A stretch of DNA of 64,000 bases, taken from Sporomusaceae bacterium. Lineage in GTDB: Bacteria > Bacillota > Negativicutes > UBA1444. Of this stretch, positions 10,084 through 55,084 are shown piece after piece. The notes under the pieces are model-generated. The model was not told the DNA's origin, made no database searches, and saw nothing but the letters and a program-made list of their open reading frames with translations. The translations under genes and the position numbers were made by a program. The DNA is taken from positions 128,522 through 192,521 of the forward strand of contig JAHDPL010000024.1 in the NCBI GenBank assembly GCA_018434355.1. The letters run 5' to 3'. Within the stretch, counting starts at the first letter, position 1, and every line of letters begins with the position of its first letter.

Positions 10084-11172
10084 TCATATGGATATGCTAA
10101 GATGATTTCGACCGGCTATCCATTGATAGCTGCTGCTCTTGGTCAGTTTCTCGATTAAACGCAGTGACAGGTTATCGCTATCTGGCAGCAACAGAAATGG
10201 ATTTTGCTGCAATCCCGCGTAATTGAACAATAGTTGGAAATCGCCGGTTTTTTCGGAGTACTCAAGTGTCAGCTCGATTGCCGGATCGCCGGGAAATAGC
10301 GGCAATAACATTTGGCCGAGAACTTCTTCCACGATTAGCAAGATGTGGCTTACGGTTCGTTTATCTGCCGTATGGCGGGCGCAAAACAGCTCCAGGTTTG
10401 CCTGCAGTTTATAAAGGTCGAAATGGCGACTGACCACTTTTTCACAAAACTTGCGGATTCTTTGGATAAAGATCCGCGTTTTTTCTTTTTGCGGGTTATC
10501 GAAAATGTCGCTCGGTTTGCCTTCTTCATAGATGATTCCTTCGTCCATGTAAAACACGCGGCTTGACACATTTTTGGCGAAATCCATTTCATGTGTCACG
10601 ATCGCCATTGTCATGCCGTCTTTGGCCAACCTGCGAATTACGGACAGCACTTCGCTGACCATGGTGGGGTCGAGTGCCGAAGTCGGTTCGTCAAACAGGA
10701 TGATTTCCGGGTCCATTGCCAGACAACGGGCGATAGCGACCCGCTGTTTTTGGCCGCCGGAGAGTTCATCGGGAAACTGATGCAGCTTTTCTGATACTCC
10801 GACGGATTTCAGCAGTTCTATGGCTTTTGATTCCGCATCCTGGCGAGACTTCCCGAGCAGTATCATGGGTCCAAGCGTCAGGTTATCCAAGACTGTTAAG
10901 TGTGCAAACAGGTTGAAGGATTGAAAGACCATGCCCATTTTGCGCCGCAACTTCGGTTCATCCGTGCCTTTTTGCAGGATATTGACTCCGTCAATCACGA
11001 TGCTGCCGCCGGTAGGGCGTTCGAGCAGGTTCAGGCAACGCAGGAAAGTGCTTTTGCCGGTGCCGGACGGCCCGATGATCGAAATGACTTCGCCCTTGCG
11101 GATTTCGGCATTGATATCTTTTAAAACCCAGTGATCGCCAAAGCGTTTGGAGAGATTCTTCACGCTGATCAT
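10084..11172 (-). CDS. polar amino-acid ABC transporter ATP-binding protein with ~115-aa C-terminal extension of unknown function
   Basis: Walker [10 protein letters not shown], signature [13 protein letters not shown], Walker [12 protein letters not shown]; 362 aa versus ~240 aa for GlnQ-type ATPases. Confidence 0.8.
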
Positions 11173-13526
11173 GGCTGTTGCCTCCTTACCATGGCCGCAA
11201 TGTCGTTTTCCAGGTAGGCAATGGAAAACACACAGGCCGCTTCCCGCTCGTTCAGTTTGTAAAAATTGGCGATGGCCAGGTCGATTTTTCCGGCTTGCAG
11301 CGCAGCAATCATCGCATCATAAGACATATCGGTTATTTCCAGCTTCATCTCCAGATGTTCGGCCAACAGATAAGCCAGCTCGATGTCAAGTCCCGCCATC
11401 ACGCCATTGGACATGAAGGCGTAGGGCTCGCTGAGCAGACAGGTTCCCATCCTGAGCACGCCATTGCGGCCGTCAAGCGTAATTTTAGGTACGGTAGGAG
11501 TAGTCGCAGACAGAATCCATTTTTGCTTCAATCTGTCGATGGTCCCATCCTGCTTGAATTTGTTGATCGCCGCATTGACTTTACGGTGCAGGTCGGGAGC
11601 ATCGCTGCGCATCGGAATGGCAATCTCGACGGTAGACAGGCGCTCCGGCAAAATTTCATAGTATTGCTGGTGTCTAGCCAAGATATATTGCAGGGTGTTC
11701 CGGTCAAAAACAAACGCGTCGGCCTTGTTTGCCCGCAATGCCAGTGCGGCATCAGCCGGGTATACCATATCGACGACCTTGGCATTTTTATATTTCTCAC
11801 GGATGACAAAATCGCCGGTCGTACCGGTAATGACCGCGATTCTTTTGCCGTTGAGGTCAGACAGGCTTTTGATAGCGGCGCCTGTTGTCACAGAGATGGA
11901 TTTGGGTTCAGTTGGTCCGGTGGAGTTGTATACCGCAACCATTGCCAGACTCAGAATCGCCAACAGCAGCAATGTCAACCAACTAGCGCGAGAGGCGAGA
12001 AGACCGGAACAATTTTTTCGGCGCGGATCACTGAGCCGGTCCAGCGCGTCCAAAAATTGCAGCAGCAGGGCGGAAATCGCAAAGTAGAGTACCGCCGTCA
12101 TCAACAGCGGGAAAAACGCGTCGAATGTGCGGCTGCGGATGATGTCACTGGCCTTGGTCAGATCTTGTACGGCGATATAGCCGACAATCGAGGTCATCTT
12201 GACCAGCGAGATGACTTCACCTTTATAAACGCTCAGAACCCGCCGGATGGCTTGGGGCATGATGATGTATACGAACGTTTGAAACTTGTTGAATCCGCCG
12301 GCGATGCCTGCTTCAGTCTGGCCCCGGTCGATGCTTTCGATCGCAGCGCGAAACATCTCCGAAACATAGGCGGCGAAATTCATGCCAAACGCCACGATAG
12401 CCACCAATACCGGCGATACATTGGCATTACCGAAAATCACGTAATACATAATCATCAGCAGCACTAGCACGGGCACGCCGCGCATCAGCGAAATGTAAAG
12501 GCGGGCGGTAAGCTGGAATGATTTTCGGCGCGACATCCGCAAAAAGCAGATGAATCCGCCCAGCAGCGTGCCGAACAGGATGGAGAACAGCGAAATTACC
12601 AGCGTGGTTTTCAGACCGTCGAGGATTAACAAATAGCGGTTTTCCCTGATAATATTGCTGTGAAATCCTTCGACAAGACTTTGGGTCAGCGAAATCGAGT
12701 GAACTGATTTCTGATGGGAGCCTGCCAGGTGAGAGATATTTTTCTTCAATGCAATTACCGCAGTTTTGTCTTCCATATAAGGGATACTGAAGTCGACTTG
12801 TTTCTGTCGCTCAGCGTTGATGGCTATGCAATCAGCGATCATATCCACCTTGCCGCTGGCCAAGGAAGCGATCAATGCGGAAAAATCCATCGACAGGATC
12901 TGCAGATTTATGTTTTCCTGGGCGGCAAAGGTCTGAATCAGTTCAATGTCAAAGCCAACATATTCGCCATCGACATAACCTGCGCTCGGCAGATCGCCGA
13001 TCGCGACTCCCAGGACAACCTTGCGACCGCTTGGATTGACTTTGAACTTTGGCATTTTGATGGTGCCCAGGTCGTTGTCGAACCATTTCCTGTACATCGT
13101 CTCCAGGGAGCCGTCGGTTTTGCGAGCCTGCAAGAAGGCGTCAAAACGGGCCCGTAGCTCAGGGTTGTTTTTGTTGAATCCGATGCCGATGGGAAAGGTT
13201 AGTAGTTGATCGGTAAGGATGCCGACTTCGGCATTGTCTTTTAGCATATTTTTGGCTGCTGCATAATTAGTGATCGCTACGTCGACCTTTTCACTTTTTA
13301 TTGCCAACAACAGATCGGTCTGGGAATTGTAGCGCAAGATTTGGGCGTCAGGAAATCGTTCACTGGCGAATTTGTCATAAATGAAGCCGCTGACTACTCC
13401 GATACGTTTGTTCGACATGTCTTCGATGGTTGCAAGGCGGCTGGTCGGCGTCTGTTTGCTGCAACCGGCAAGCAGAGCCAAAATCATCAGTAGAGTTATG
13501 AACAGTAGGTGCCTTGTGTGTTTCAA
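11169..13526 (-). CDS. fused amino-acid ABC transporter: lipoprotein substrate-binding domain - permease TMD - second substrate-binding domain
   Basis: ~785 aa; AGGAGG + 8 nt + TTG gives [22 protein letters not shown] lipobox (ORF track starts 18 nt upstream at 13544); His/Gln-type permease motifs; two SBP_bac_3-like domains. Confidence 0.75.
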
Positions 13527-13764
13527 CTGAAAAGCCTCCTGCAATATGAGAATGTCCGATTGCTGCCTCTCTAGATAATACGGTGCATTATAGGAAAACC
13601 CCTGCCTAACAAGGACTGTAGACAGGAAAAAATAGGACGAAATTCCCAGTGAAAAATAAGACCTCGGTATGATGGCGGATTGGTTTCTACTTGCTACAAT
13701 TTAATCAGAAAGCAGGACAGGAAAATCCTGAAACAAAAATAAAAAATTAGGGAGGAATAATACA

Positions 13765-17024: not shown

Positions 17025-18959
17025 ATGGACGAGGTTGCACACCGGAACATGGCGGCAAATAAACGTGTTCTGGTAGTCGATGACGATGAAGGTTTGAGAA
17101 ATCTAATTGCACGAAGGCTGCGCAAGGCGGGCTTTGAAGTTTCGCTTGCCGTCAATGGAGCGGCTGCGGTCGAACTTGCATTGGTCGATCCTGGTCAATT
17201 GCTGGTGCTTGACCAAAAGCTTGTCGATATGACCGGGCGAGAAGTGATTCGTCTGCTAACGGAGCAGGGTTGCAAGGTTCATTTTGTCATGATGACTGGA
17301 CAGGGCGATGAGCGGCTGGCCGTGGAAATGATGAAACTTGGCGCAGCCGATTATCTGGTCAAGGGGCTTGACTTGCTTGACTTACTGCCTGCGACGCTGG
17401 ACCGTGTATTTCGTGCCATCGAAACAGAAAACCGATTACTGAAAGCAGAAAAAGAGCTGCAGGATAGCAGGGAACAATACCGGGCGCTGATTGAGCAGGC
17501 CTATGAAGCAGTGGTGCTGATTGATCCGGAAACTTGGCTGATTGTTGAAGTAAACCAACGGTTTAGCGAATGGTTTGGCTACAGGTTGCCGGCAGACGCT
17601 CCGCTTTCACGCAATGCTATTTTATCTGAGGCATCAGCCAATCAGGAATACTACGATGCAAAACTATTTGCCGACGGATTTTTGCCGGTGGCGCGCCGAA
17701 CTTTTCGCCATAAGGACGGCACATTGCTGTTTATGGAGCGGAGCGCCAAAATCATCAATCATCAATCGCGTCGTTTAGTCGTCGTCATCTATCGCAACAT
17801 TGCCGAACAGCTCCAACAGGAACAGGCGCGACTGCAGGATGCGGCGATTGCCCGCCGAATTCAAAGGGCGCAACTGTCTTGCCCGGATGAAACGGAATAT
17901 GTGTCGATCGAGACGGCATTTCTGCCCTGTGGGGATATCAGCGGAGATCTGTATCATCTGGAATGGCGAAATGACGGAAATTTGCTGCGCGGTTATCTGG
18001 TTGATGTGGCGGGGCATGGGTTGACAACGGCGCTATATACATCGACAATCAATATATTGTTGCATGAAGCTGCCGAATTGGATGCTTCACTCTCGGAACA
18101 GCTCGATTGGCTAAATCGACAAGTGGTCAGACATTTTTCTACCAGCGCCTACGTCGCTGCAATTGCATTTGAACTTGATCTGCAGATGGGGGAACTTCGG
18201 TACGCGAGTGCTGGAATCAATCGTTTCTGGGTGCGGATGGCTGCCCGGAAAGGAATGGTGGCGGTTTCCGGCCCATATCTCGGCAAAGAACCGTCTTGGC
18301 GCTATATGATGCAGCAATTGCCGATTGCAGCCGGTGATCACATTTGTTTTGCTACCGATGGCGTTGAAACCATACTGGCGGATCAGCCTCTATGCCAGGC
18401 ATGTGATGGAAGACAGATATCCGCGATGCTTTTGGCTCTACCGGAATGGACTGAAAAAACGCATGATACGACTGCCGTCTGTTTGCAGATTAAAGCGTTG
18501 CCGCACTCCCTGCAGGACGGTAAGTGGCCCAAAGTTTTGAAATTGAACGGGTTTGACGATTATCGACGCTTGAAAGGGCAAGTGGCAAAAATACTGGCTG
18601 ATGCAACCGATTTACCTCATTCCTTGCAGGAAGTTGCAGTGAATGAGGCTTTGGCTAATGCTATGGAATGCAGGGATGGCGTTCCCCGACAGCACCGAGC
18701 GAGAATCCGGTTCAACAAAATCGGCGCATGGTTGATTGTTCGCGTGCGAACCTCACGGATTGGATTCGCCGGAAATGCCGTTTTGCGTCGGTTGCGGGCA
18801 ATGCCTGACGAAATGTTTGCTTTTGGCGAGGATCAGGCGATGGGGCGGGGGATTCCTCTGATGTTAAGCCTATCACACAAAATGATGTATAACAGTGACG
18901 GTACAGAAGTACTGCTGGCCTGGAATATGAAACGACAGGAACTAAATAACAACAAGTGA
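17025..18959 (+). CDS. multidomain signalling protein: receiver - PAS - PP2C/SpoIIE phosphatase - HATPase_c (RsbW-like) domain
   Basis: REC (VLVVDDDEGLRNLIARRLRKAGFEV), PAS, PP2C motif (GDISGDLYHL...VDVAGHGLTTAL), C-terminal GHKL N-box (EVAVNEALANAMECRDG) and G2 (AMGRGIPLM). Confidence 0.75.
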   Translation: MDEVAHRNMAANKRVLVVDDDEGLRNLIARRLRKAGFEVSLAVNGAAAVELALVDPGQLLVLDQKLVDMTGREVIRLLTEQGCKVHFVMMTGQGDERLAVEMMKLGAADYLVKGLDLLDLLPATLDRVFRAIETENRLLKAEKELQDSREQYRALIEQAYEAVVLIDPETWLIVEVNQRFSEWFGYRLPADAPLSRNAILSEASANQEYYDAKLFADGFLPVARRTFRHKDGTLLFMERSAKIINHQSRRLVVVIYRNIAEQLQQEQARLQDAAIARRIQRAQLSCPDETEYVSIETAFLPCGDISGDLYHLEWRNDGNLLRGYLVDVAGHGLTTALYTSTINILLHEAAELDASLSEQLDWLNRQVVRHFSTSAYVAAIAFELDLQMGELRYASAGINRFWVRMAARKGMVAVSGPYLGKEPSWRYMMQQLPIAAGDHICFATDGVETILADQPLCQACDGRQISAMLLALPEWTEKTHDTTAVCLQIKALPHSLQDGKWPKVLKLNGFDDYRRLKGQVAKILADATDLPHSLQEVAVNEALANAMECRDGVPRQHRARIRFNKIGAWLIVRVRTSRIGFAGNAVLRRLRAMPDEMFAFGEDQAMGRGIPLMLSLSHKMMYNSDGTEVLLAWNMKRQELNNNK

Positions 18960-18966
18960 GGCAACG

Positions 18967-20142
18967 ATGGAGTGGGAAAATAAAACAGATAGTTCCGCCC
19001 GCTGGCGGGAAGATGCCGAAAAGGCATTGCTAAGGGGACAAATCGACGAGGCGTTTCGCAATATTGACAAGGCGATTGCCGCCAGCGGTCGCACGATCGA
19101 TTTGCTGATGAAGGCGGACCTGCTTTGGGCAGCCGGCAAGCATGAGCAATGCATCGAATATATCGAGAACAACATGGTCAGGTTTGAAGCCGATTTAACG
19201 GAGCGTGAGCGAAAAAGCCGATTGTTGCCATTGTTGCGCAAAGGCGCAGAGTATTTCTATAAAAAAGCCGATTCGCTGTATGAGGCAGGGCGTTATGCAG
19301 AATGCGCCGAGTTTGCCAAATTTGTTCTTACCGAGCATGCTAGTTTTTTGCAACAGAAAAAATATCGCGAATTATTTGAGTTTGCCTGGCAAAGTTCCAA
19401 TGACGAATTGCTGCGCAGCCTATATAAAAGTCGTGATTATGAGGGATGCGTCGATGCCGTCGATCATATCTTCGCTCAGGCGCGTCGTTTGACGACCTTT
19501 GGCCAGCGCAACCGCTATCGGAAATTGCGGGCGAAGGCGTATTTTCGCCAGGGTCGTTATGCAATCGGTCTGCTCGATTATTTTGCCGTGCCTGGCGTCT
19601 GGATAACATTGTTTGCAGTGATAATCCTTGTTTATGGTCTAAATATCGGTTATCAGATACTGGTGGGAAGTGGTTTCTTTAAACCGTCATCTGTCGTGAC
19701 GCAAAAAAATGAATCGCCGACCGCGACAACACCGTCTGAAGCTGTAAAAGTCGCGCCGACCAGACCGGCAGTCAGGCGGGCGGAAATTAAAAGCGTCAAA
19801 TTGTTTGAAGCCGATCGGGCGATTCCGCTGGTCGGGGCGCGGGTCTACCAAAATCAGTTCACTCGCCAAGCCCGGCGGATCTTTGTTGAAGTTCATTATC
19901 GCAATCTTAATTTCCGTAAGGCTGACGTATCGTTGCCGCTGATCATCCAGTACATCAGTCCGACCGGTGTTCTATTGCAGGAACTGACCACGACATCCAA
20001 CCCGAAAAAGGAATACGAATCGGCGATTACTTCCATGGGGTGGCGACCGGATGAAGATGCCGCCTGGCAACCAGGACGTTATACGGTCCGGGTGATATTG
20101 GATGGCGAACAGCTGCCGGACGTAAACTTTGAAGTGCGATGA
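18967..20142 (+). CDS. hypothetical bitopic membrane protein: cytoplasmic TPR-like N-domain, one TM helix, extracytoplasmic ~115-aa domain
   Basis: TM helix VWITLFAVIILVYGLNIGYQILV; C-terminal domain homologous to repeats of the secreted protein at 53873-54877. Confidence 0.5.
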   Translation: MEWENKTDSSARWREDAEKALLRGQIDEAFRNIDKAIAASGRTIDLLMKADLLWAAGKHEQCIEYIENNMVRFEADLTERERKSRLLPLLRKGAEYFYKKADSLYEAGRYAECAEFAKFVLTEHASFLQQKKYRELFEFAWQSSNDELLRSLYKSRDYEGCVDAVDHIFAQARRLTTFGQRNRYRKLRAKAYFRQGRYAIGLLDYFAVPGVWITLFAVIILVYGLNIGYQILVGSGFFKPSSVVTQKNESPTATTPSEAVKVAPTRPAVRRAEIKSVKLFEADRAIPLVGARVYQNQFTRQARRIFVEVHYRNLNFRKADVSLPLIIQYISPTGVLLQELTTTSNPKKEYESAITSMGWRPDEDAAWQPGRYTVRVILDGEQLPDVNFEVR

Positions 20143-20837
20143 GTGGAGCAGAACTGGCCTATTTGCGGCGGATCCCTGTATTTGAAGATTTGGCGCCGGA
20201 AGATTTGCAGCTGATTATTCGGGTTACTGCAGAACGGCGGATTGCTCGCGGTCAGGCAGTGTTTAGCGAAGGAGAGCCCGGCGAAGGATTTCACTATATT
20301 CGCAGCGGACGGGTCAAAATTATCAAACTGTCTGCTGATGGGCGGGAGCATATCCTGAACATCCTTGGTCCTGGCGATGTTTTTGCCGAAGTACTGTTGT
20401 TTAATGAAGCGCCGTATCCGGCTACTGCCATTGCTGTGGAAGATGCCGTGATCGGTGTCATTCGCAATCGTGACCTAGAAGCGCTATTGGTTGCTCAGCC
20501 ACGACTGGCGGTTCATGTCATACGGGTGATGAGCAAGAAGCTGTTGTACATCCAGTCCAAAGTAAAGTCGTTTGCATTGGCCGACAGTCAGGCGAAAGTC
20601 GCGCAAACCCTGGATTATTTACTGGGACGGTATGGGAACCCTACCGGCAATACGCGGGAAGTAACCCTGGAAATTAATCGCCAGGATCTTGCCAATATGG
20701 CTGGAACGACGCGAGAAACAGTAAGTCGTGTGTTCAGGACGTTAAAGGATGATGGAGTGATTGAGGATGAAGAACGACGAATCGTAGTAAGGGATCCAGT
20801 TCGTTTGCGGACATATTTCGAACAATCGGTAGTTTAA
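20139..20837 (+). CDS. Crp-family (cNMP-binding) transcriptional regulator
   Basis: cNMP-binding domain plus C-terminal HTH with recognition helix RETVSR (CRP-like R-E...R); no FNR Cys cluster; start overlaps upstream gene stop (ATGA). Confidence 0.8.
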   Translation: MSGAELAYLRRIPVFEDLAPEDLQLIIRVTAERRIARGQAVFSEGEPGEGFHYIRSGRVKIIKLSADGREHILNILGPGDVFAEVLLFNEAPYPATAIAVEDAVIGVIRNRDLEALLVAQPRLAVHVIRVMSKKLLYIQSKVKSFALADSQAKVAQTLDYLLGRYGNPTGNTREVTLEINRQDLANMAGTTRETVSRVFRTLKDDGVIEDEERRIVVRDPVRLRTYFEQSVV

Positions 20838-20940
20838 AGTTGACCCCGCTTGGTTTAATTAGTTATAATATTATTAGTTGTAACTAAAACGATGTATAAT
20901 ATTATTTTGTTTTCATCGTTAACACCGAGGAGGGTTATGT

Positions 20941-21240
20941 TTGTTGGTTTTGACCCCGGAAGCTATTAGTTATATCAAAGAAAAGCAACAACCGATCTAT
21001 TTGGATCATCCGCCGCTTTCCGGCGCAAACAGTCAGATGAAGATCAAGCCGCCACCGGTAAAATTCGGGGTACCGAAAAATCTGCCTGATTTTACTTTAC
21101 ATGAGGAACAGGGTGTAACCGTCTATATGCCTCGCGGACTGGAAGTGGTCCAGATAACAGTGGAATTGTCGGGGATTTTGTTCCTGAAGAAACTGATGGC
21201 TCGTGTAGCCGTCGGAAAAAAGTTGGGAAGTTGTTGTTAA
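20941..21240 (+). CDS. small hypothetical protein ending in C-terminal Cys-Cys (possible CC/Se-motif family)
   Basis: 99 aa, TTG start after GAGGAGGG; ...RVAVGKKLGSCC*; own sigma-70-like promoter TTGACC-17-TATAAT upstream. Confidence 0.45.
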   Translation: MLVLTPEAISYIKEKQQPIYLDHPPLSGANSQMKIKPPPVKFGVPKNLPDFTLHEEQGVTVYMPRGLEVVQITVELSGILFLKKLMARVAVGKKLGSCC

Positions 21241-21267
21241 ACAAGAATAAGCTATCTGCGATGATTA

Positions 21268-21307
21268 ACCGGGTGTTTGCAAGTGCGAACCCCGGTGATT
21301 TTTTTTT
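21268..21307 (+). terminator. Rho-independent terminator
   Basis: ACCGGG...CCCGGT hairpin followed by T9. Confidence 0.6.
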
Positions 21308-21323
21308 ATAAAAAGTTTTTGCG

Positions 21324-21339
21324 TGTGATTTATATCACA
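21324..21339 (+). promoter_or_regulatory. CRP-type operator TGTGA-N6-TCACA
   Basis: Perfect palindrome TGTGATTTATATCACA 80 nt upstream of the ATG at 21404. Confidence 0.6.
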
Positions 21340-21403
21340 GCATTGTTAGCCAGAATCAATTATTCTATAGACAGAGCAGAACAAATATCAGGGGGAATGA
21401 AAG

Positions 21404-22375
21404 ATGTTGCCCAAAGGCGCCAACCTACAAAAAATTCGTAATGGAAATAAAACGTATGCGGTTACCCCGCATCTGCCAGGCGGGTTTGTAAAACCGGAAG
21501 TCTTGGAAAAGTATGCGCAAGTAGCACGAAAATATGAAGGAACGCTAAAATTAACCTCAGCCCAACGGATCATGATCACCAACTTGAAAGCGGAAGACAT
21601 CGAAGCGATCTGGGCTGAGCTGGGGATGCAACCGGCGATGGGATTTGCCAATTGTGTACGTAGCGTCAAAGTTTGTCCGGGGATTGCTTTCTGCAAACGA
21701 GGTAAGCAGGACAGCGTGAAACTGGGACTAGAGCTGGATCGGCGATATATCAAGAAAGAGATGCCTTCGCGCATGAAATTCGGCGTGTCGGGTTGTCCGA
21801 ACTCTTGTTCGGAATCTGTCATCAAGGATGTCGGAGTCATTGGCACTGAAGCTGGATGGGATGTATATGTGGGAGGCAGCGCCGGGTCGCATCCACGATT
21901 GGCCGATAAATTGGCTGAAAGCCTTGATTATTACGACACATTGCGTCTTGTTGATATCGTAGTGCGTTATTATCAGAAATATGCCGACATCGAACGGGTC
22001 GGACAGTTTATCGACCGGATTGGCTTTGCAAAGTTCCAGGCCGATGTACTAGCTGAGTTTAACGGAACTGGGGCGGTGGAAAGCACGGTGACCGCATCGA
22101 CGGTTTCGTCGGAAAAATTGACACCGATGCCGGGGGCTTTGACAGAGGGGACATTGGTGGTTGGCGATCCGATAACGCAAGGCAGCGTAATCGCTGACAT
22201 CATTCGGATCTATCCGCAGACGATTCCGGTATTGCGTGGGTTTGGCATGGGTTGTCTCGGTTGCCCGTCCGCCACGGGGGAACCGTTGGAAAAGGCGGCA
22301 GGGATTCATGGTTTGGCGGTTGAGGAACTGATAGTCGCACTAAATGAAGTCGTATTGAGGGGGAAATTAACATGA
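21404..22375 (+). CDS. nitrite/sulfite reductase-like (ferredoxin-like half domain + 4Fe-4S/siroheme domain) fused to C-terminal DUF1858 redox-disulfide domain
   Basis: C-X6-C...C-X3-C cluster (CVRSVKVCPGIAFC, SGCPNSC); C-terminal ~80 aa with GFGMGCLGCP motif typical of DUF1858. Confidence 0.6.
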   Translation: MLPKGANLQKIRNGNKTYAVTPHLPGGFVKPEVLEKYAQVARKYEGTLKLTSAQRIMITNLKAEDIEAIWAELGMQPAMGFANCVRSVKVCPGIAFCKRGKQDSVKLGLELDRRYIKKEMPSRMKFGVSGCPNSCSESVIKDVGVIGTEAGWDVYVGGSAGSHPRLADKLAESLDYYDTLRLVDIVVRYYQKYADIERVGQFIDRIGFAKFQADVLAEFNGTGAVESTVTASTVSSEKLTPMPGALTEGTLVVGDPITQGSVIADIIRIYPQTIPVLRGFGMGCLGCPSATGEPLEKAAGIHGLAVEELIVALNEVVLRGKLT

Positions 22376-22980
22376 GCGCATTTATCGGGCCGATCCACTA
22401 TTGGTTGTATGGAAAAATCCATCTGGTGAATCAGCGGCAGGAATATCTACGGGAAAAAGTCAGTGAGATGTGCGGGTCCACTGCCGAAGAATTATGGGAA
22501 CAAGTGACGCAGAGCTTTGGAGAACCTTTGCCTGACAAGGATCTGGGCGAGTTAATCGCGCACGACAATATTCATGGTTGGCTGCAACGTCAGATCAATT
22601 TGGCGGAAAGCCGGGAAGCGGCTTTCATCAAGGAACTGACAGACACTTGTGGCGGAGCTGCGCAGGACCTGATTGGCAGGACATTTGCCGAGCATGGAAA
22701 ACAAACCGGCGAGGCAGTCGCCGCATCCGGACGTTATGATCTGAGTTCGGCAGCAAGCATATTGAAAGCATTGAATGACCACTACCTCAGCGGAATGCCT
22801 TGCGACGACGGTGATTGCGTCATGGCGATCCATCAGCCGAATTGGCAGCGGACCGGCGTCAACGAGGCGGACATGCGCTCGTATTATGAGCAATGGCTCA
22901 AAGGCTTCGTACAAGGTGCAAACGCAAAATTTGTCTACAAACTGGATGGGGAGAGTCACCAGATTTCTCCTTCTGCATAA
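22372..22980 (+). CDS. hypothetical protein (202 aa), translationally coupled to the sulfite-reductase-like gene
   Basis: ATGA overlap with upstream gene; no recognisable motifs. Confidence 0.5.
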   Translation: MSAFIGPIHYWLYGKIHLVNQRQEYLREKVSEMCGSTAEELWEQVTQSFGEPLPDKDLGELIAHDNIHGWLQRQINLAESREAAFIKELTDTCGGAAQDLIGRTFAEHGKQTGEAVAASGRYDLSSAASILKALNDHYLSGMPCDDGDCVMAIHQPNWQRTGVNEADMRSYYEQWLKGFVQGANAKFVYKLDGESHQISPSA

Positions 22981-51960: not shown

Positions 51961-53784
51961 ATGAAAAGAACCGACTTGAGAAATGTTGCAATCATCGCCC
52001 ACGTTGACCATGGCAAAACGACATTGGTCGACGCCATGCTGAAACAGAGCGGCGTATTTCGCGCCAATGAAAATGTGCCAGTCTGCGTTATGGATTCCAA
52101 TGACCTGGAACGCGAGCGCGGCATCACAATCTTGGCCAAAAATACGGCAGTCCTTTATCATGATATCAAGATCAACATTGTCGACACACCGGGTCATGCC
52201 GATTTTGGCGGCGAAGTGGAACGGGTGCTGAACATGGTTGATGGCGTGCTGCTGTTGGTAGATGCATTCGAGGGGCCGATGCCTCAGACCAAGTATGTAT
52301 TGCGCAAAGCGCTGGAACAAAAATTGAAACCGATCGTGGTCATCAACAAGATTGACCGGCAAGACGAACGGGCCGAAGAAGTCGTCGATGAGGTATTGGA
52401 TCTGTTCATCGAACTGGGCGCTACCGAAGAACAACTTGATTTTCCGGTGGTCTATGCTGCAGCCCGCGCCGGGATTGCCAAACTGAACATGTCAGATGAA
52501 AGCGATAGTCTGGAACCTTTGTTTGCTACGTTGGTGCAGGAGATTCCGATGCCGGAAGGCGAAGAAAACTCACCACTGCAAATTATGGTCACGACCATCG
52601 ACCATGATGAGTATGTCGGACGCATCGGCATCGGACGCGTGGTGAGGGGAACTGTCAAGGCGGGACAAACGGTTTCCGTATTGCATCGCGACGCTGAAAG
52701 CAAGCAAAAGATCAGCCTGCTCTATGTCTATGACGGGTTGAAGCGAAAGGAAGTATCTTCGGCAACGATCGGCGATATCATCGCGATCACCGGCCTTGAT
52801 GACTTTACGATCGGCGATACGCTGGCTGATCCGGAAAATCCGGAAACACTGCCGACCATCAATATCGATGAACCGACCCTGTCAATGATGTTCATGGTCA
52901 ACAACGGTCCGTTTGCCGGCAAAGAGGGGCAATATGTCACTTCGCGCCATTTGCGGGACCGCTTGATGAAAGAAAGAGAGACGAATGTCAGCCTGCGGAT
53001 CAAGGAAACCGACAGTCCGGATACGTTTGAGGTCTGTGGACGCGGCGAACTCCACCTGGCGGTGCTGATCGAAACGATGCGACGCGAAGGGTATGAGTTT
53101 TGCGTTGGCAAGCCTCAGGTAATTTATAAGGAAATCAAAGGGAAGAAATGCGAACCGTTGGAATTCCTTACCGTCGATGTGCCGGCGGAATTCATGGGCG
53201 CGGTGATGGACCAACTGGGAAATCAGAGGGCGGAAATGGTCAATATGGTCGAGTTGGCCGGTTATTTGCGGCTGGAATTTGTTGTGCCGGCGCGCAGCCT
53301 GATTGGATTCCGCTCGCAATTTTTGACCAATACCAAAGGAAACGGCATTATGCATCATGTGTACCATGGCTATGCTCCTTACAAAGGGGATATCCCCGGC
53401 CGTACCCGGGGCGCGTTGGTGGCATTTGAAACAGGGGAAACCACTGCTTATGGAATCTTCAATGTGCAGGACCGCGGCGTGATGTTCATTGTGCCGGGCC
53501 AACAAGTGTATGCAGGCATGATTGTGGGTGAAAACACCCGCGAGCTGGATATGGATATCAATCCTTGCAAAAAGAAACAAATGACCAACACGCGTTCCAG
53601 TTCCGCCGATGAGGCGTTGCGTTTGATTACTCCACGAATCATGAGTCTGGAACAGTGCTTGGAACACATTAATGATGACGAGCTGGTGGAAGTGACGCCG
53701 AAGAACCTGCGTCTGCGCAAAGCGATTTTGGACCGGGTCCAGCGTGGCCGGATTCGCAAAAATGCTGCTAACGCCAGTCAATAA
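51961..53784 (+). CDS. typA: translational GTPase TypA/BipA
   Basis: MKRTDLRNVAIIAHVDHGKTTLVDAML, DTPGHADF, NKID. Confidence 0.95.
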   Translation: MKRTDLRNVAIIAHVDHGKTTLVDAMLKQSGVFRANENVPVCVMDSNDLERERGITILAKNTAVLYHDIKINIVDTPGHADFGGEVERVLNMVDGVLLLVDAFEGPMPQTKYVLRKALEQKLKPIVVINKIDRQDERAEEVVDEVLDLFIELGATEEQLDFPVVYAAARAGIAKLNMSDESDSLEPLFATLVQEIPMPEGEENSPLQIMVTTIDHDEYVGRIGIGRVVRGTVKAGQTVSVLHRDAESKQKISLLYVYDGLKRKEVSSATIGDIIAITGLDDFTIGDTLADPENPETLPTINIDEPTLSMMFMVNNGPFAGKEGQYVTSRHLRDRLMKERETNVSLRIKETDSPDTFEVCGRGELHLAVLIETMRREGYEFCVGKPQVIYKEIKGKKCEPLEFLTVDVPAEFMGAVMDQLGNQRAEMVNMVELAGYLRLEFVVPARSLIGFRSQFLTNTKGNGIMHHVYHGYAPYKGDIPGRTRGALVAFETGETTAYGIFNVQDRGVMFIVPGQQVYAGMIVGENTRELDMDINPCKKKQMTNTRSSSADEALRLITPRIMSLEQCLEHINDDELVEVTPKNLRLRKAILDRVQRGRIRKNAANASQ

Positions 53785-53872
53785 GTTGCTGTTATATTTG
53801 CAGGAGACGACAGAAGGAATGTAGAATTTTAAAAAAGAGAGTCTGTTGCTTGAGCGGATTGGAGGCATCCAT

Positions 53873-54877
53873 ATGAATTGGCTGAGGTTCGAAAAATTGC
53901 GAACACTATTGATATTCTGCTGGATCGCCGCGTTTGCAGTAGGTTTACCTTTGTGTTCGATTGTGTTGCCGCAGCAAATTGCGCATGCGGCAGTTGCCAA
54001 CGACGGGACTGACGATGAAGTAAGGCCGCCGGTGGAGAATCCACCACCACCGACTCAACCGCCCAAACCGCCCGTAACTGTGAAACCGCCAGTCGCGCCG
54101 ACTCCACCGCCGGCAAGTGGGCCTGCTTTGTCGATCACCGATGTGCGAGTGCGCAATGAAGACAAGGAAGGAAATGGGCTCAGCGAATACAAAATCAGCT
54201 TTGACTATGAAGAAACCCGTTGGATCTCTTATTATGTGCGTTTGGTCAATAATACCGATGAGCGGTTGCGCGGCAAACTGGGAATTCGCTATATCCAGCC
54301 CGATGGAAAGCTGAAGCAGAACTCTAAAAGCCCGCCGAATTTTACATTTGAGCAGGATATTGATGTGGTTGAGACCTTGGAGAAAACCGGTGGCTGGGGC
54401 AAAGCGACCGGCGGTACTTTTGAACCAGGGCGGCATCGGGTCGAGTTTTGGTGGGATGGCAAACGGATTCACCAATTGACTTTTGCAGTCAGCGAGCCGG
54501 AAGTGTCACTCAAGATCGCATCAATCCGACTGCGTAATGAAACCAAAAACAGCGAACCACTGGGCGACTTTAGCAAATCCTTTGATCAGGACGAAATCCA
54601 ATTCATCACATTTCATCTGCAACTGGTGAATACAACATCCTTGCCGCTAAAAGGATTGATCGGCGTGAAATATTTCGGGCCGAACGGAAATATGCTACGC
54701 GGCAGCAAGAGTCCTGACGGGTTCACCATGACTCAGTCGGTCAATTTTACTGACAAAGTGACCATTAATAACGGCTGGGGAAACAGCGCCGGCAACTATT
54801 TCGCGCCAGGACGACATCGCATCGAGTTTTGGTGGAATGACAAACGGATCGGGCAGACTTATTTTGATGTGAATTAA
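53873..54877 (+). CDS. secreted hypothetical protein: signal peptide, Pro-rich linker, two tandem ~115-aa repeat domains of unknown function
   Basis: GGAGG RBS; signal/TM LRTLLIFCWIAAFAVGLPLCSIV; linker PPPPTQPPKPPVTVKPPVAPTPPP; two repeats each ending GWG...PGRHR[VI]EFWW.DKRI. Confidence 0.6.
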   Translation: MNWLRFEKLRTLLIFCWIAAFAVGLPLCSIVLPQQIAHAAVANDGTDDEVRPPVENPPPPTQPPKPPVTVKPPVAPTPPPASGPALSITDVRVRNEDKEGNGLSEYKISFDYEETRWISYYVRLVNNTDERLRGKLGIRYIQPDGKLKQNSKSPPNFTFEQDIDVVETLEKTGGWGKATGGTFEPGRHRVEFWWDGKRIHQLTFAVSEPEVSLKIASIRLRNETKNSEPLGDFSKSFDQDEIQFITFHLQLVNTTSLPLKGLIGVKYFGPNGNMLRGSKSPDGFTMTQSVNFTDKVTINNGWGNSAGNYFAPGRHRIEFWWNDKRIGQTYFDVN

Positions 54878-54913: not shown

Positions 54914-54950
54914 AGCGCCGGATACCGCAAGGGTCCGGCGCTATTCTTTT
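54914..54950 (+). terminator. Rho-independent terminator
   Basis: AGCGCCGGA...TCCGGCGCT hairpin + ATTCTTTT. Confidence 0.7.
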
Positions 54951-55084
54951 GCCTATCGGCTCTGCTGGATAACTATACAATCAATAGGAATAAATTGTTG
55001 CTGTGAAAACGTCAAATCTGTTATAATAAGCGAGTCGACGCCAATAATCCAGGCTGTTCGCGAAGGTAGGGAGGCACGGAATCC

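Follow-up and report, generated by a model that had tools for sequence, protein, structure and literature searches.

The window considered here is the whole 64,000-nt stretch of DNA. At 53873-54877 on the forward strand it carries an open reading frame of 334 aa, whose product is hereafter called p1; the ATG is at 53873 and the stop codon at 54875-54877, in agreement with the coordinates given in the original prediction, and the reading frame is open from 53846 (+) in the list of open reading frames. The protein encoded at 18967-20142 is called p2. The features of the p1 locus are as follows.

51961-53784: typA, the neighbour 5' of p1
53861-53865 (+): Shine-Dalgarno sequence GGAGG, read from the sequence, 7 nt 5' of the p1 ATG
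53873-53989 (+): p1 residues 1-39, a basic n-region, a 21-residue hydrophobic helix, then A-H-A↓A-V
53990-54121 (+): p1 residues 40-83, the conserved putative mature N-terminus AAVA[NT]DGTDDEVRPP followed by a proline-rich linker (alignment A1)
54122-54496 (+): p1 repeat 1, residues 84-208, a predicted 7-strand Ig-like beta-sandwich (BLASTP and AF2)
54497-54874 (+): p1 repeat 2, residues 209-334, a predicted 7-strand Ig-like beta-sandwich (BLASTP and AF2)
54914-54950 (+): hairpin resembling an intrinsic terminator, with a GC-rich stem and a GCAA loop, then AUUCUUUU, 37 nt 3' of the p1 stop codon
55085-55963: livH, the neighbour 3' of p1

Residues 1-39 are predicted to be either a Sec signal peptide or an uncleaved signal anchor, and the N-terminal helix spans residues 2-31 in the AF2 model. 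The proline-rich linker that had been described in p1 is present at residues ~50-83 and is modelled as disordered, pLDDT being below 50 for residues 31-79. Over residues 40-83 the orthologues are on average 66% identical. Within this region, the segment AAVA[NT]DGTDDEVRPP (residues 40-54; 53990-54034) is conserved far above the signal helix, and also above the remainder of the linker.

The hairpin at 54914-54950 was overlooked by a simple terminator pattern scan and was detected by folding against shuffled sequences: its energy is -28.3 kcal/mol (z=-4.06), and none of 200 shuffles folds equally well. p1 therefore lies at the end of a transcription unit. Neither a promoter meeting the scan criteria nor a terminator was found in the typA-p1 interval, so that co-transcription of p1 with typA is possible. 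A promoter-like sequence, TTGCTG-17-TATAAT, lies at ~54998-55026, upstream of the liv operon.

The tandem duplication proposed for p1 is borne out, as repeats 1 (84-208) and 2 (209-334) share 41% identity over 123 ungapped columns in BLASTP (E=3e-39). Both repeats are found in all 22 full-length p1 orthologues (47-90% identity), and the duplication is thus older than the divergence of these orthologues. Repeat 1 is the more conserved copy and the distal repeat 2 the faster-evolving one, with mean identities among the orthologues of 81% and 60%, respectively.

The original prediction also recognized a single copy of the same domain at the C-terminus of p2, which is organized as follows.

18967-19584 (+): p2 residues 1-206, a predicted cytoplasmic, all-helical TPR-like region (AF2, Foldseek, weak Pfam TPR matches)
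19591-19662 (+): p2 residues 209-232, a predicted single transmembrane helix (AF2 helix 209-232)
19780-20139 (+): p2 residues 272-391, a divergent single copy of the domain, in which GWG has become GWR and EFWW has become VRVxL

The helical region of the p2 model was matched by Foldseek to MamA, consensus TPR proteins, HOP and BamD. We infer an N-in/C-out topology, which would expose the domain to the periplasm, because an Arg/Lys-rich N-terminal flank precedes the transmembrane helix (positive-inside rule). In the AF2 model a disordered linker (236-266) leads to a 7-strand sandwich (272-390), and the order and spacing of its strands are the same as in the p1 repeats.

Taken pairwise, the p1 repeats and the p2 C-terminus are 21-25% identical (E=4e-6 when the linker is included, 8e-4 for the domain alone), and the collinear motifs listed in the original prediction are visible in both the pairwise and the profile alignments. 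The MAFFT alignment A5 misplaces strand B, the second strand, of p2, and the BLAST, hhalign and HMM alignments were used instead. With hhalign, the profile of the p1 repeats (A3) matches a profile of 11 p2 C-termini (A4) at 93.3% (E=2.7e-7). The 622 six-frame ORFs of the window were also searched with an HMM built from 388 instances of the domain, p2 being left out (H2). Residues 274-390 of p2 match HMM positions 4-124 with 29.9 bits (E=1.6e-8), and the two p1 repeats score 130 and 122 bits. Only p1 and p2 were matched in this search, the next best ORF having an E-value of 0.7.

Could such a likeness reflect convergent beta-sandwich composition without homology? The low pairwise identity would allow it, and the final strand motif, G-x-Y-x-V-x-V...F-x-V, is common to many unrelated sandwich families; recurrence of this last-strand motif would account for the weak matches to DUF3859, DUF6941, PapC_N and 6oe6. 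However, the match of the p2 profile to a broad profile of 47 diverse members of the domain family that excludes p2 sequences (A8) spans 116 of ~126 columns at 98.2% (E=4.4e-14), p2 is the sole other matching ORF in the window, none of 2000 shuffled versions of the p2 segment scores above 7.4 bits, compared with 29.9 for the real one, and the p1 and p2 models agree in the number and spacing of their strands. Convergence is hardly credible in the face of these results. The similarity is significant by hhalign, HMM and shuffling, and the p2 C-terminus is a genuine homologous copy of the p1 repeat domain, a conclusion that is robust when profiles are used.

The original prediction overstated the rarity of this domain. 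A profile search of 1.84 billion representatives retrieved 1802 clusters (50% identity) at E<=1e-3, 1053 of them at E<=1e-10; most are multi-repeat or membrane-anchored proteins, and the family is not specific to one organism. The proteins retrieved carry between 1 and 6 copies each. Of the reference genomes, only metagenome-assembled genomes of Negativicutes ('Veillonellaceae') contained full p1 orthologues, and distant single-domain relatives occur in Bacteroidales. A tblastn search of plasmids and phages with the Bacteroidales-type domain gave no match, and a homologue search with the mixed alignment A5 returned five short fragments only, adding nothing.

Two architectures recur in the family. 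First, a signal or lipoprotein-like N-terminus is followed by 2-6 repeats, often together with BACON, SH3_3, MORN, PEGA, TonB_C or FGE-sulfatase domains. Second, a cytoplasmic module (Pkinase, TIR_2, a zinc ribbon (Zn_ribbon), GYF-like or caspase (Peptidase_C14)) is followed by one transmembrane helix and a coiled coil, and the domain comes last, at the very C-terminal end. PASTA, PEGA, BACON and Big_2 domains, which have no sequence relationship to the domain, play a comparable architectural role, being found in tandem on surface proteins or as ectodomains of bacterial Ser/Thr kinases.

In several proteins (P0136, P0151, P0096, P0121 and P0069) the domain is fused to caspase (Peptidase_C14), TIR_2, or FGE-sulfatase and PEGA domains, combinations typical of bacterial signalling proteins of the conflict or programmed-death type. 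Bacteroides nordii JCM 12987 carries two tandem paralogues of 234 and 257 aa (L011, 6239-9671), laid out as a small N-terminal domain, a transmembrane segment, a coiled coil and the C-terminal domain, and flanked by membrane proteins whose N-termini look, by eye only, GYF-type.

That the domain has no obvious name holds to the extent that none of the curated models searched names it. No family for the p1 repeat domain exists in Pfam-A (2025 copy) or NCBIfam r20, p1 itself has no Pfam match at E<=10, and the scans give no placement in a well-known family of the kind that would have counted against the original prediction. Scans of 23 and of 47 single family domains gave only scattered Pfam matches below threshold: Ig_2 (0.023), RbmA-like_FnIII (0.043, in one of the 23 family domains) and Bact_surface_Ig-like (2e-4, in one of the 47) all fall well below the cut-offs, and the domain has no significant Pfam match to the named Ig-like families (fn3, Ig_2, Big_1/2, RbmA-like_FnIII and Bact_surface_Ig-like). 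Sequence searches of the PDB with three profiles returned nothing significant.

The namelessness is qualified by faint echoes of families of uncharacterised function. DUF3859 (PF12975) and DUF6941 (PF22091) are uncharacterised bacterial beta-sandwich domains of ~123-125 aa, similar in size to the p1 domain, and their C-terminal strands align end to end with those of the family. One subfamily of distant, multi-repeat relatives, which carries 'FFEgg...GWGW', reaches their cut-offs with whole-protein scores of 30 bits against 24 for DUF3859 (P0080 and P0101) and 27.8 against 27 for DUF6941 (P0080), and does so only through the summing of partial matches to the last strands; by eye, the p2 copy resembles this subfamily. 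For single domains, the best DUF3859 E-value is 0.046 (n=23), none of 47 domain representatives has a match at E<=0.01, and neither p1 nor p2 has any, both remaining below the DUF3859 gathering threshold of 24 bits. The relation to DUF3859 and DUF6941 would be, at best, a remote one at the superfamily level. DUF8428 (PF28532), an entry newer than the searched Pfam-A copy and known here through precomputed labels alone, is attached with the label 'faint' to most p1 orthologues (no single match at E=0.001) and is missing from the Bacteroidales-type relative P0023. A literature search on DUF3859/PF12975 and DUF8428/PF28532 found no papers. To judge from these sequence comparisons, the domain family is real and is unnamed in the libraries searched.

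Its predicted fold is an ordinary one. AF2 models each copy of the domain as a 7-strand beta-sandwich, with mean pLDDT of 80.6 for p1 and 82.4 for p2 and block means mostly of 80-97 within the repeats. The seven strands per domain in these predicted models, together with Foldseek probabilities of 1.0 to RbmA, transglutaminase barrels, MG domains and PA1606, point to an Ig-like/FnIII-type sandwich. Against the PDB, the best neighbours of p1 are RbmA FnIII pairs (E=1.9e-8), transglutaminase C-terminal barrels and alpha-2-macroglobulin MG domains, at 13-15% identity and TM-scores of 0.25-0.37, a likeness at the level of the fold only; the low scores (<=0.37) are partly due to the query consisting of two domains. 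RbmA, the tandem FnIII biofilm matrix protein of Vibrio cholerae, has two tandem 7-strand sandwiches and is secreted, as is predicted for p1.

Single-domain neighbours of the p2 C-terminal model include 6oe6, an uncharacterised protein of Leptospira interrogans (E=1.4e-4), and 3n6y, the Ig-like PA1606 (E=9e-4), with target TM-scores of 0.48-0.54 in Foldseek; both proteins are uncharacterised. The last-strand motif of 6oe6 resembles that of the domain family, in a sequence match that is not significant (E=0.68). The Foldseek comparison of AlphaFold models, proposed as a check in the original prediction, thus revealed the generic Ig-like/FnIII fold, and among PDB entries returned generic neighbours of this kind only: no specific structural relative was found. 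Bacterial Ig-like envelope modules are a familiar class, to which the domain adds a member that is new or known at most as a DUF.

The N-x-S/T sequons reported in the secreted protein are present. p1 has five, against 2.4 expected by shuffling, which is not a significant enrichment (P=0.08). N126 and N253 occupy equivalent positions in the two repeats, and their sequons recur in 22/23 and 23/23 members of the family, respectively. This conservation and the number of sequons speak for regarding p1 as an N-glycosylated surface protein or adhesin with the sequons as modification sites. Known bacterial PglB-type enzymes require D/E-x-N-x-S/T; none of the five p1 sequons has D or E at -2, and by that rule p1 does not class as a PglB-type N-linked glycoprotein. 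Moreover, relatives from other lineages keep, by eye, the Asn at the equivalent turn and not the S/T. A structural Asn turn fits better because only the Asn persists outside the p1 family, and the pattern suggests a role of the conserved Asn in the turn rather than in glycosylation. Given the absence of both enrichment and extended sequons, glycosylation of p1, which we consider very improbable, was rejected.

The surroundings of p1 are stable. The order pyrE-typA-p1-livH was observed in all six genome loci that extend far enough upstream, and livH follows p1 in 8/8 loci. Across loci L001-L010, identity is 55-95% for p1, 89-97% for typA and 91-98% for livH. The faster divergence of p1, and of its repeat 2, is a pattern common for exposed proteins.

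The surroundings of p2 vary. In the window, p2 lies between a REC-PAS-SpoIIE-HATPase_c_2 gene and a Crp-family gene, whose start is overlapped by the p2 stop codon by 4 nt, and PocR-PAS histidine kinase and REC genes are found upstream. In three other loci (L029, L030 and L032), p2 is likewise followed by genes for a Crp-family protein, a NIR_SIR/DUF1858 protein and a protein of ~200-214 aa without Pfam match, and p2 and crp overlap or nearly abut; the TPR region of p2 may be a partner of the Crp-family regulator. In L028, p2 is flanked by GGDEF-HD and Thi genes, with neither PocR nor the Crp block, and in L033 by LysR and adh_short; Crp is absent from L033, where four unrelated genes separate p2 from the PocR operon, at a distance of 4 kb. 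Compared with these five loci (L028, L029, L030, L032 and L033), only the window has PocR/REC/SpoIIE genes adjoining p2.

Two features of this region deserve mention in their own right. The block p2-Crp-NIR_SIR/DUF1858-~200-214 aa protein, at 18967-22980 in the window, is recurrent, as it is also found in L029, L030 and L032. The gene at 17025-18959, which comes after the PocR-PAS histidine kinase and the stand-alone REC, encodes a single protein of 644 aa that combines REC, PAS, a SpoIIE-type PP2C phosphatase and an anti-sigma-kinase-like HATPase_c_2 domain.

The original prediction took the shared domain as a link between p1 and the PocR/Crp signalling operon, and this part was not supported: the module is promiscuous, the partners of p2 vary and the two genes are 34 kb apart. 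Its presence in both proteins therefore gives no evidence that they act in one pathway, and the third copy on p2 reflects ordinary module reuse. The stronger form of the idea would have p1 and p2 cooperate, for instance through homotypic binding of p1 to the periplasmic domain of p2, and thereby feed the PocR/SpoIIE/Crp pathway. The homologous domain common to both proteins, the finding of both families only in metagenome-assembled genomes of Negativicutes and in metagenomes, and their occurrence together on one 75-kb contig in at least one other genome (L006, the longest contig of P0035) are all consistent with it. Nevertheless, the genes belong to different transcription units, p1 always lying in its housekeeping context between typA and livH, whereas the neighbours of p2 change between genomes, and the domain occurs with many unrelated partners across its 1802 clusters. 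The p2 copy scores 30 bits against the broad family HMM and 25 against a profile consisting mainly of p1 sequences; it stands no nearer to the p1 copies than to other subfamilies, and so is not a recent paralogue of p1. We regard cooperation between the two proteins as quite unlikely.

No annotated relative gives the domain family a function, and a role has to be sought in its architectures. Across bacteria the module serves as an extracytoplasmic end-piece, either repeated in tandem after a signal or lipoprotein peptide or as the C-terminal ectodomain of single-pass Ser/Thr kinase, TIR, zinc-ribbon, caspase and TPR proteins. Given this consistent placement outside the cytoplasm and the fusions to signalling modules, the domain would be expected to bind or to sense. 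On balance, in this uncultured Negativicutes bacterium p1 is probably an exported envelope protein with two Ig-like modules of this binding/sensing family, its export and its function both being putative: a signal or anchor helix and a flexible proline-rich stalk would precede two tandem ~125-aa Ig-like modules exported to the envelope. p2 would follow the same design, its divergent periplasmic copy being joined through one transmembrane helix to the cytoplasmic TPR region, and p1 would be the free or stalk-tethered version with two modules.

Whether p1 is free or tethered hinges on its N-terminus. An n-region (K8, R10) and the A-H-A↓A sequence are present and conserved, with a small residue at -3 and Ala at -1 retained in the 22 p1 orthologues (alignment A1), and the h-region is about 21 residues long. 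A hydrophobic core of 21 residues is long for a signal peptide, and p1 could stay in the cytoplasmic membrane through an uncleaved N-terminal helix, its proline-rich segment crossing the periplasm as a stalk, in the manner of TonB, and bringing the repeats to the peptidoglycan or the outer membrane. The commonest architecture of the wider family, in which a transmembrane segment is followed by a stalk or coiled coil and then the domain, lends weight to such an anchor, as does the co-occurrence of TonB_C in three family members. Against it stand the conserved A-x-A↓A site after the helix in the orthologues and the strongly conserved sequence directly behind it, a pattern typical of a mature N-terminus made by signal peptidase I. 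The anchored form, which differs from the exported envelope protein described above only in localisation, is possible, if doubtful.

Three loops are conserved family-wide. One, N-x-D-x-x-G, follows strand A; the second, P-D-G...S-P-x-G-Y-T, connects strands C and D; and the third, G-W-G...G, connects strands E and F. From the strand order, they would all lie at the same pole of the up-down sandwich, the C-terminal, distal one; this pole carries the C-terminus and hence would form the free end of proteins in which the domain comes last. In the exported-protein reading, the distal pole is the presumed contact site for a ligand, glycan or protein, of the envelope or from outside. The conserved loops could instead be structural, for example a metal site. 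More speculatively, and with a good deal less likelihood, the repeats would mark a major unnamed class of extracytoplasmic sensor or binding proteins (~1800 clusters) with a conserved distal ligand site; p1 would then be a free, soluble form, either competing with p2-like membrane versions for their ligand or bringing it to them.

If the module proves to be a ligand-binding ectodomain, a name and a ligand for it would provide annotation for considerably more than a thousand protein families, among them receptor-type kinases and membrane proteins with TIR or caspase domains from gut Bacteroidales. For the window itself the gain is modest, namely that the domains of the hypothetical proteins p1 and p2 are now correctly mapped, and a warning that a module in common does not show a pathway in common. 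Elsewhere in the window, a 791-aa ORF at 11169-13544 (-) contains a BPD_transp_1 ABC permease domain that is flanked on either side by SBP_bac_3 solute-binding domains, and looks like a fused binding protein and permease.
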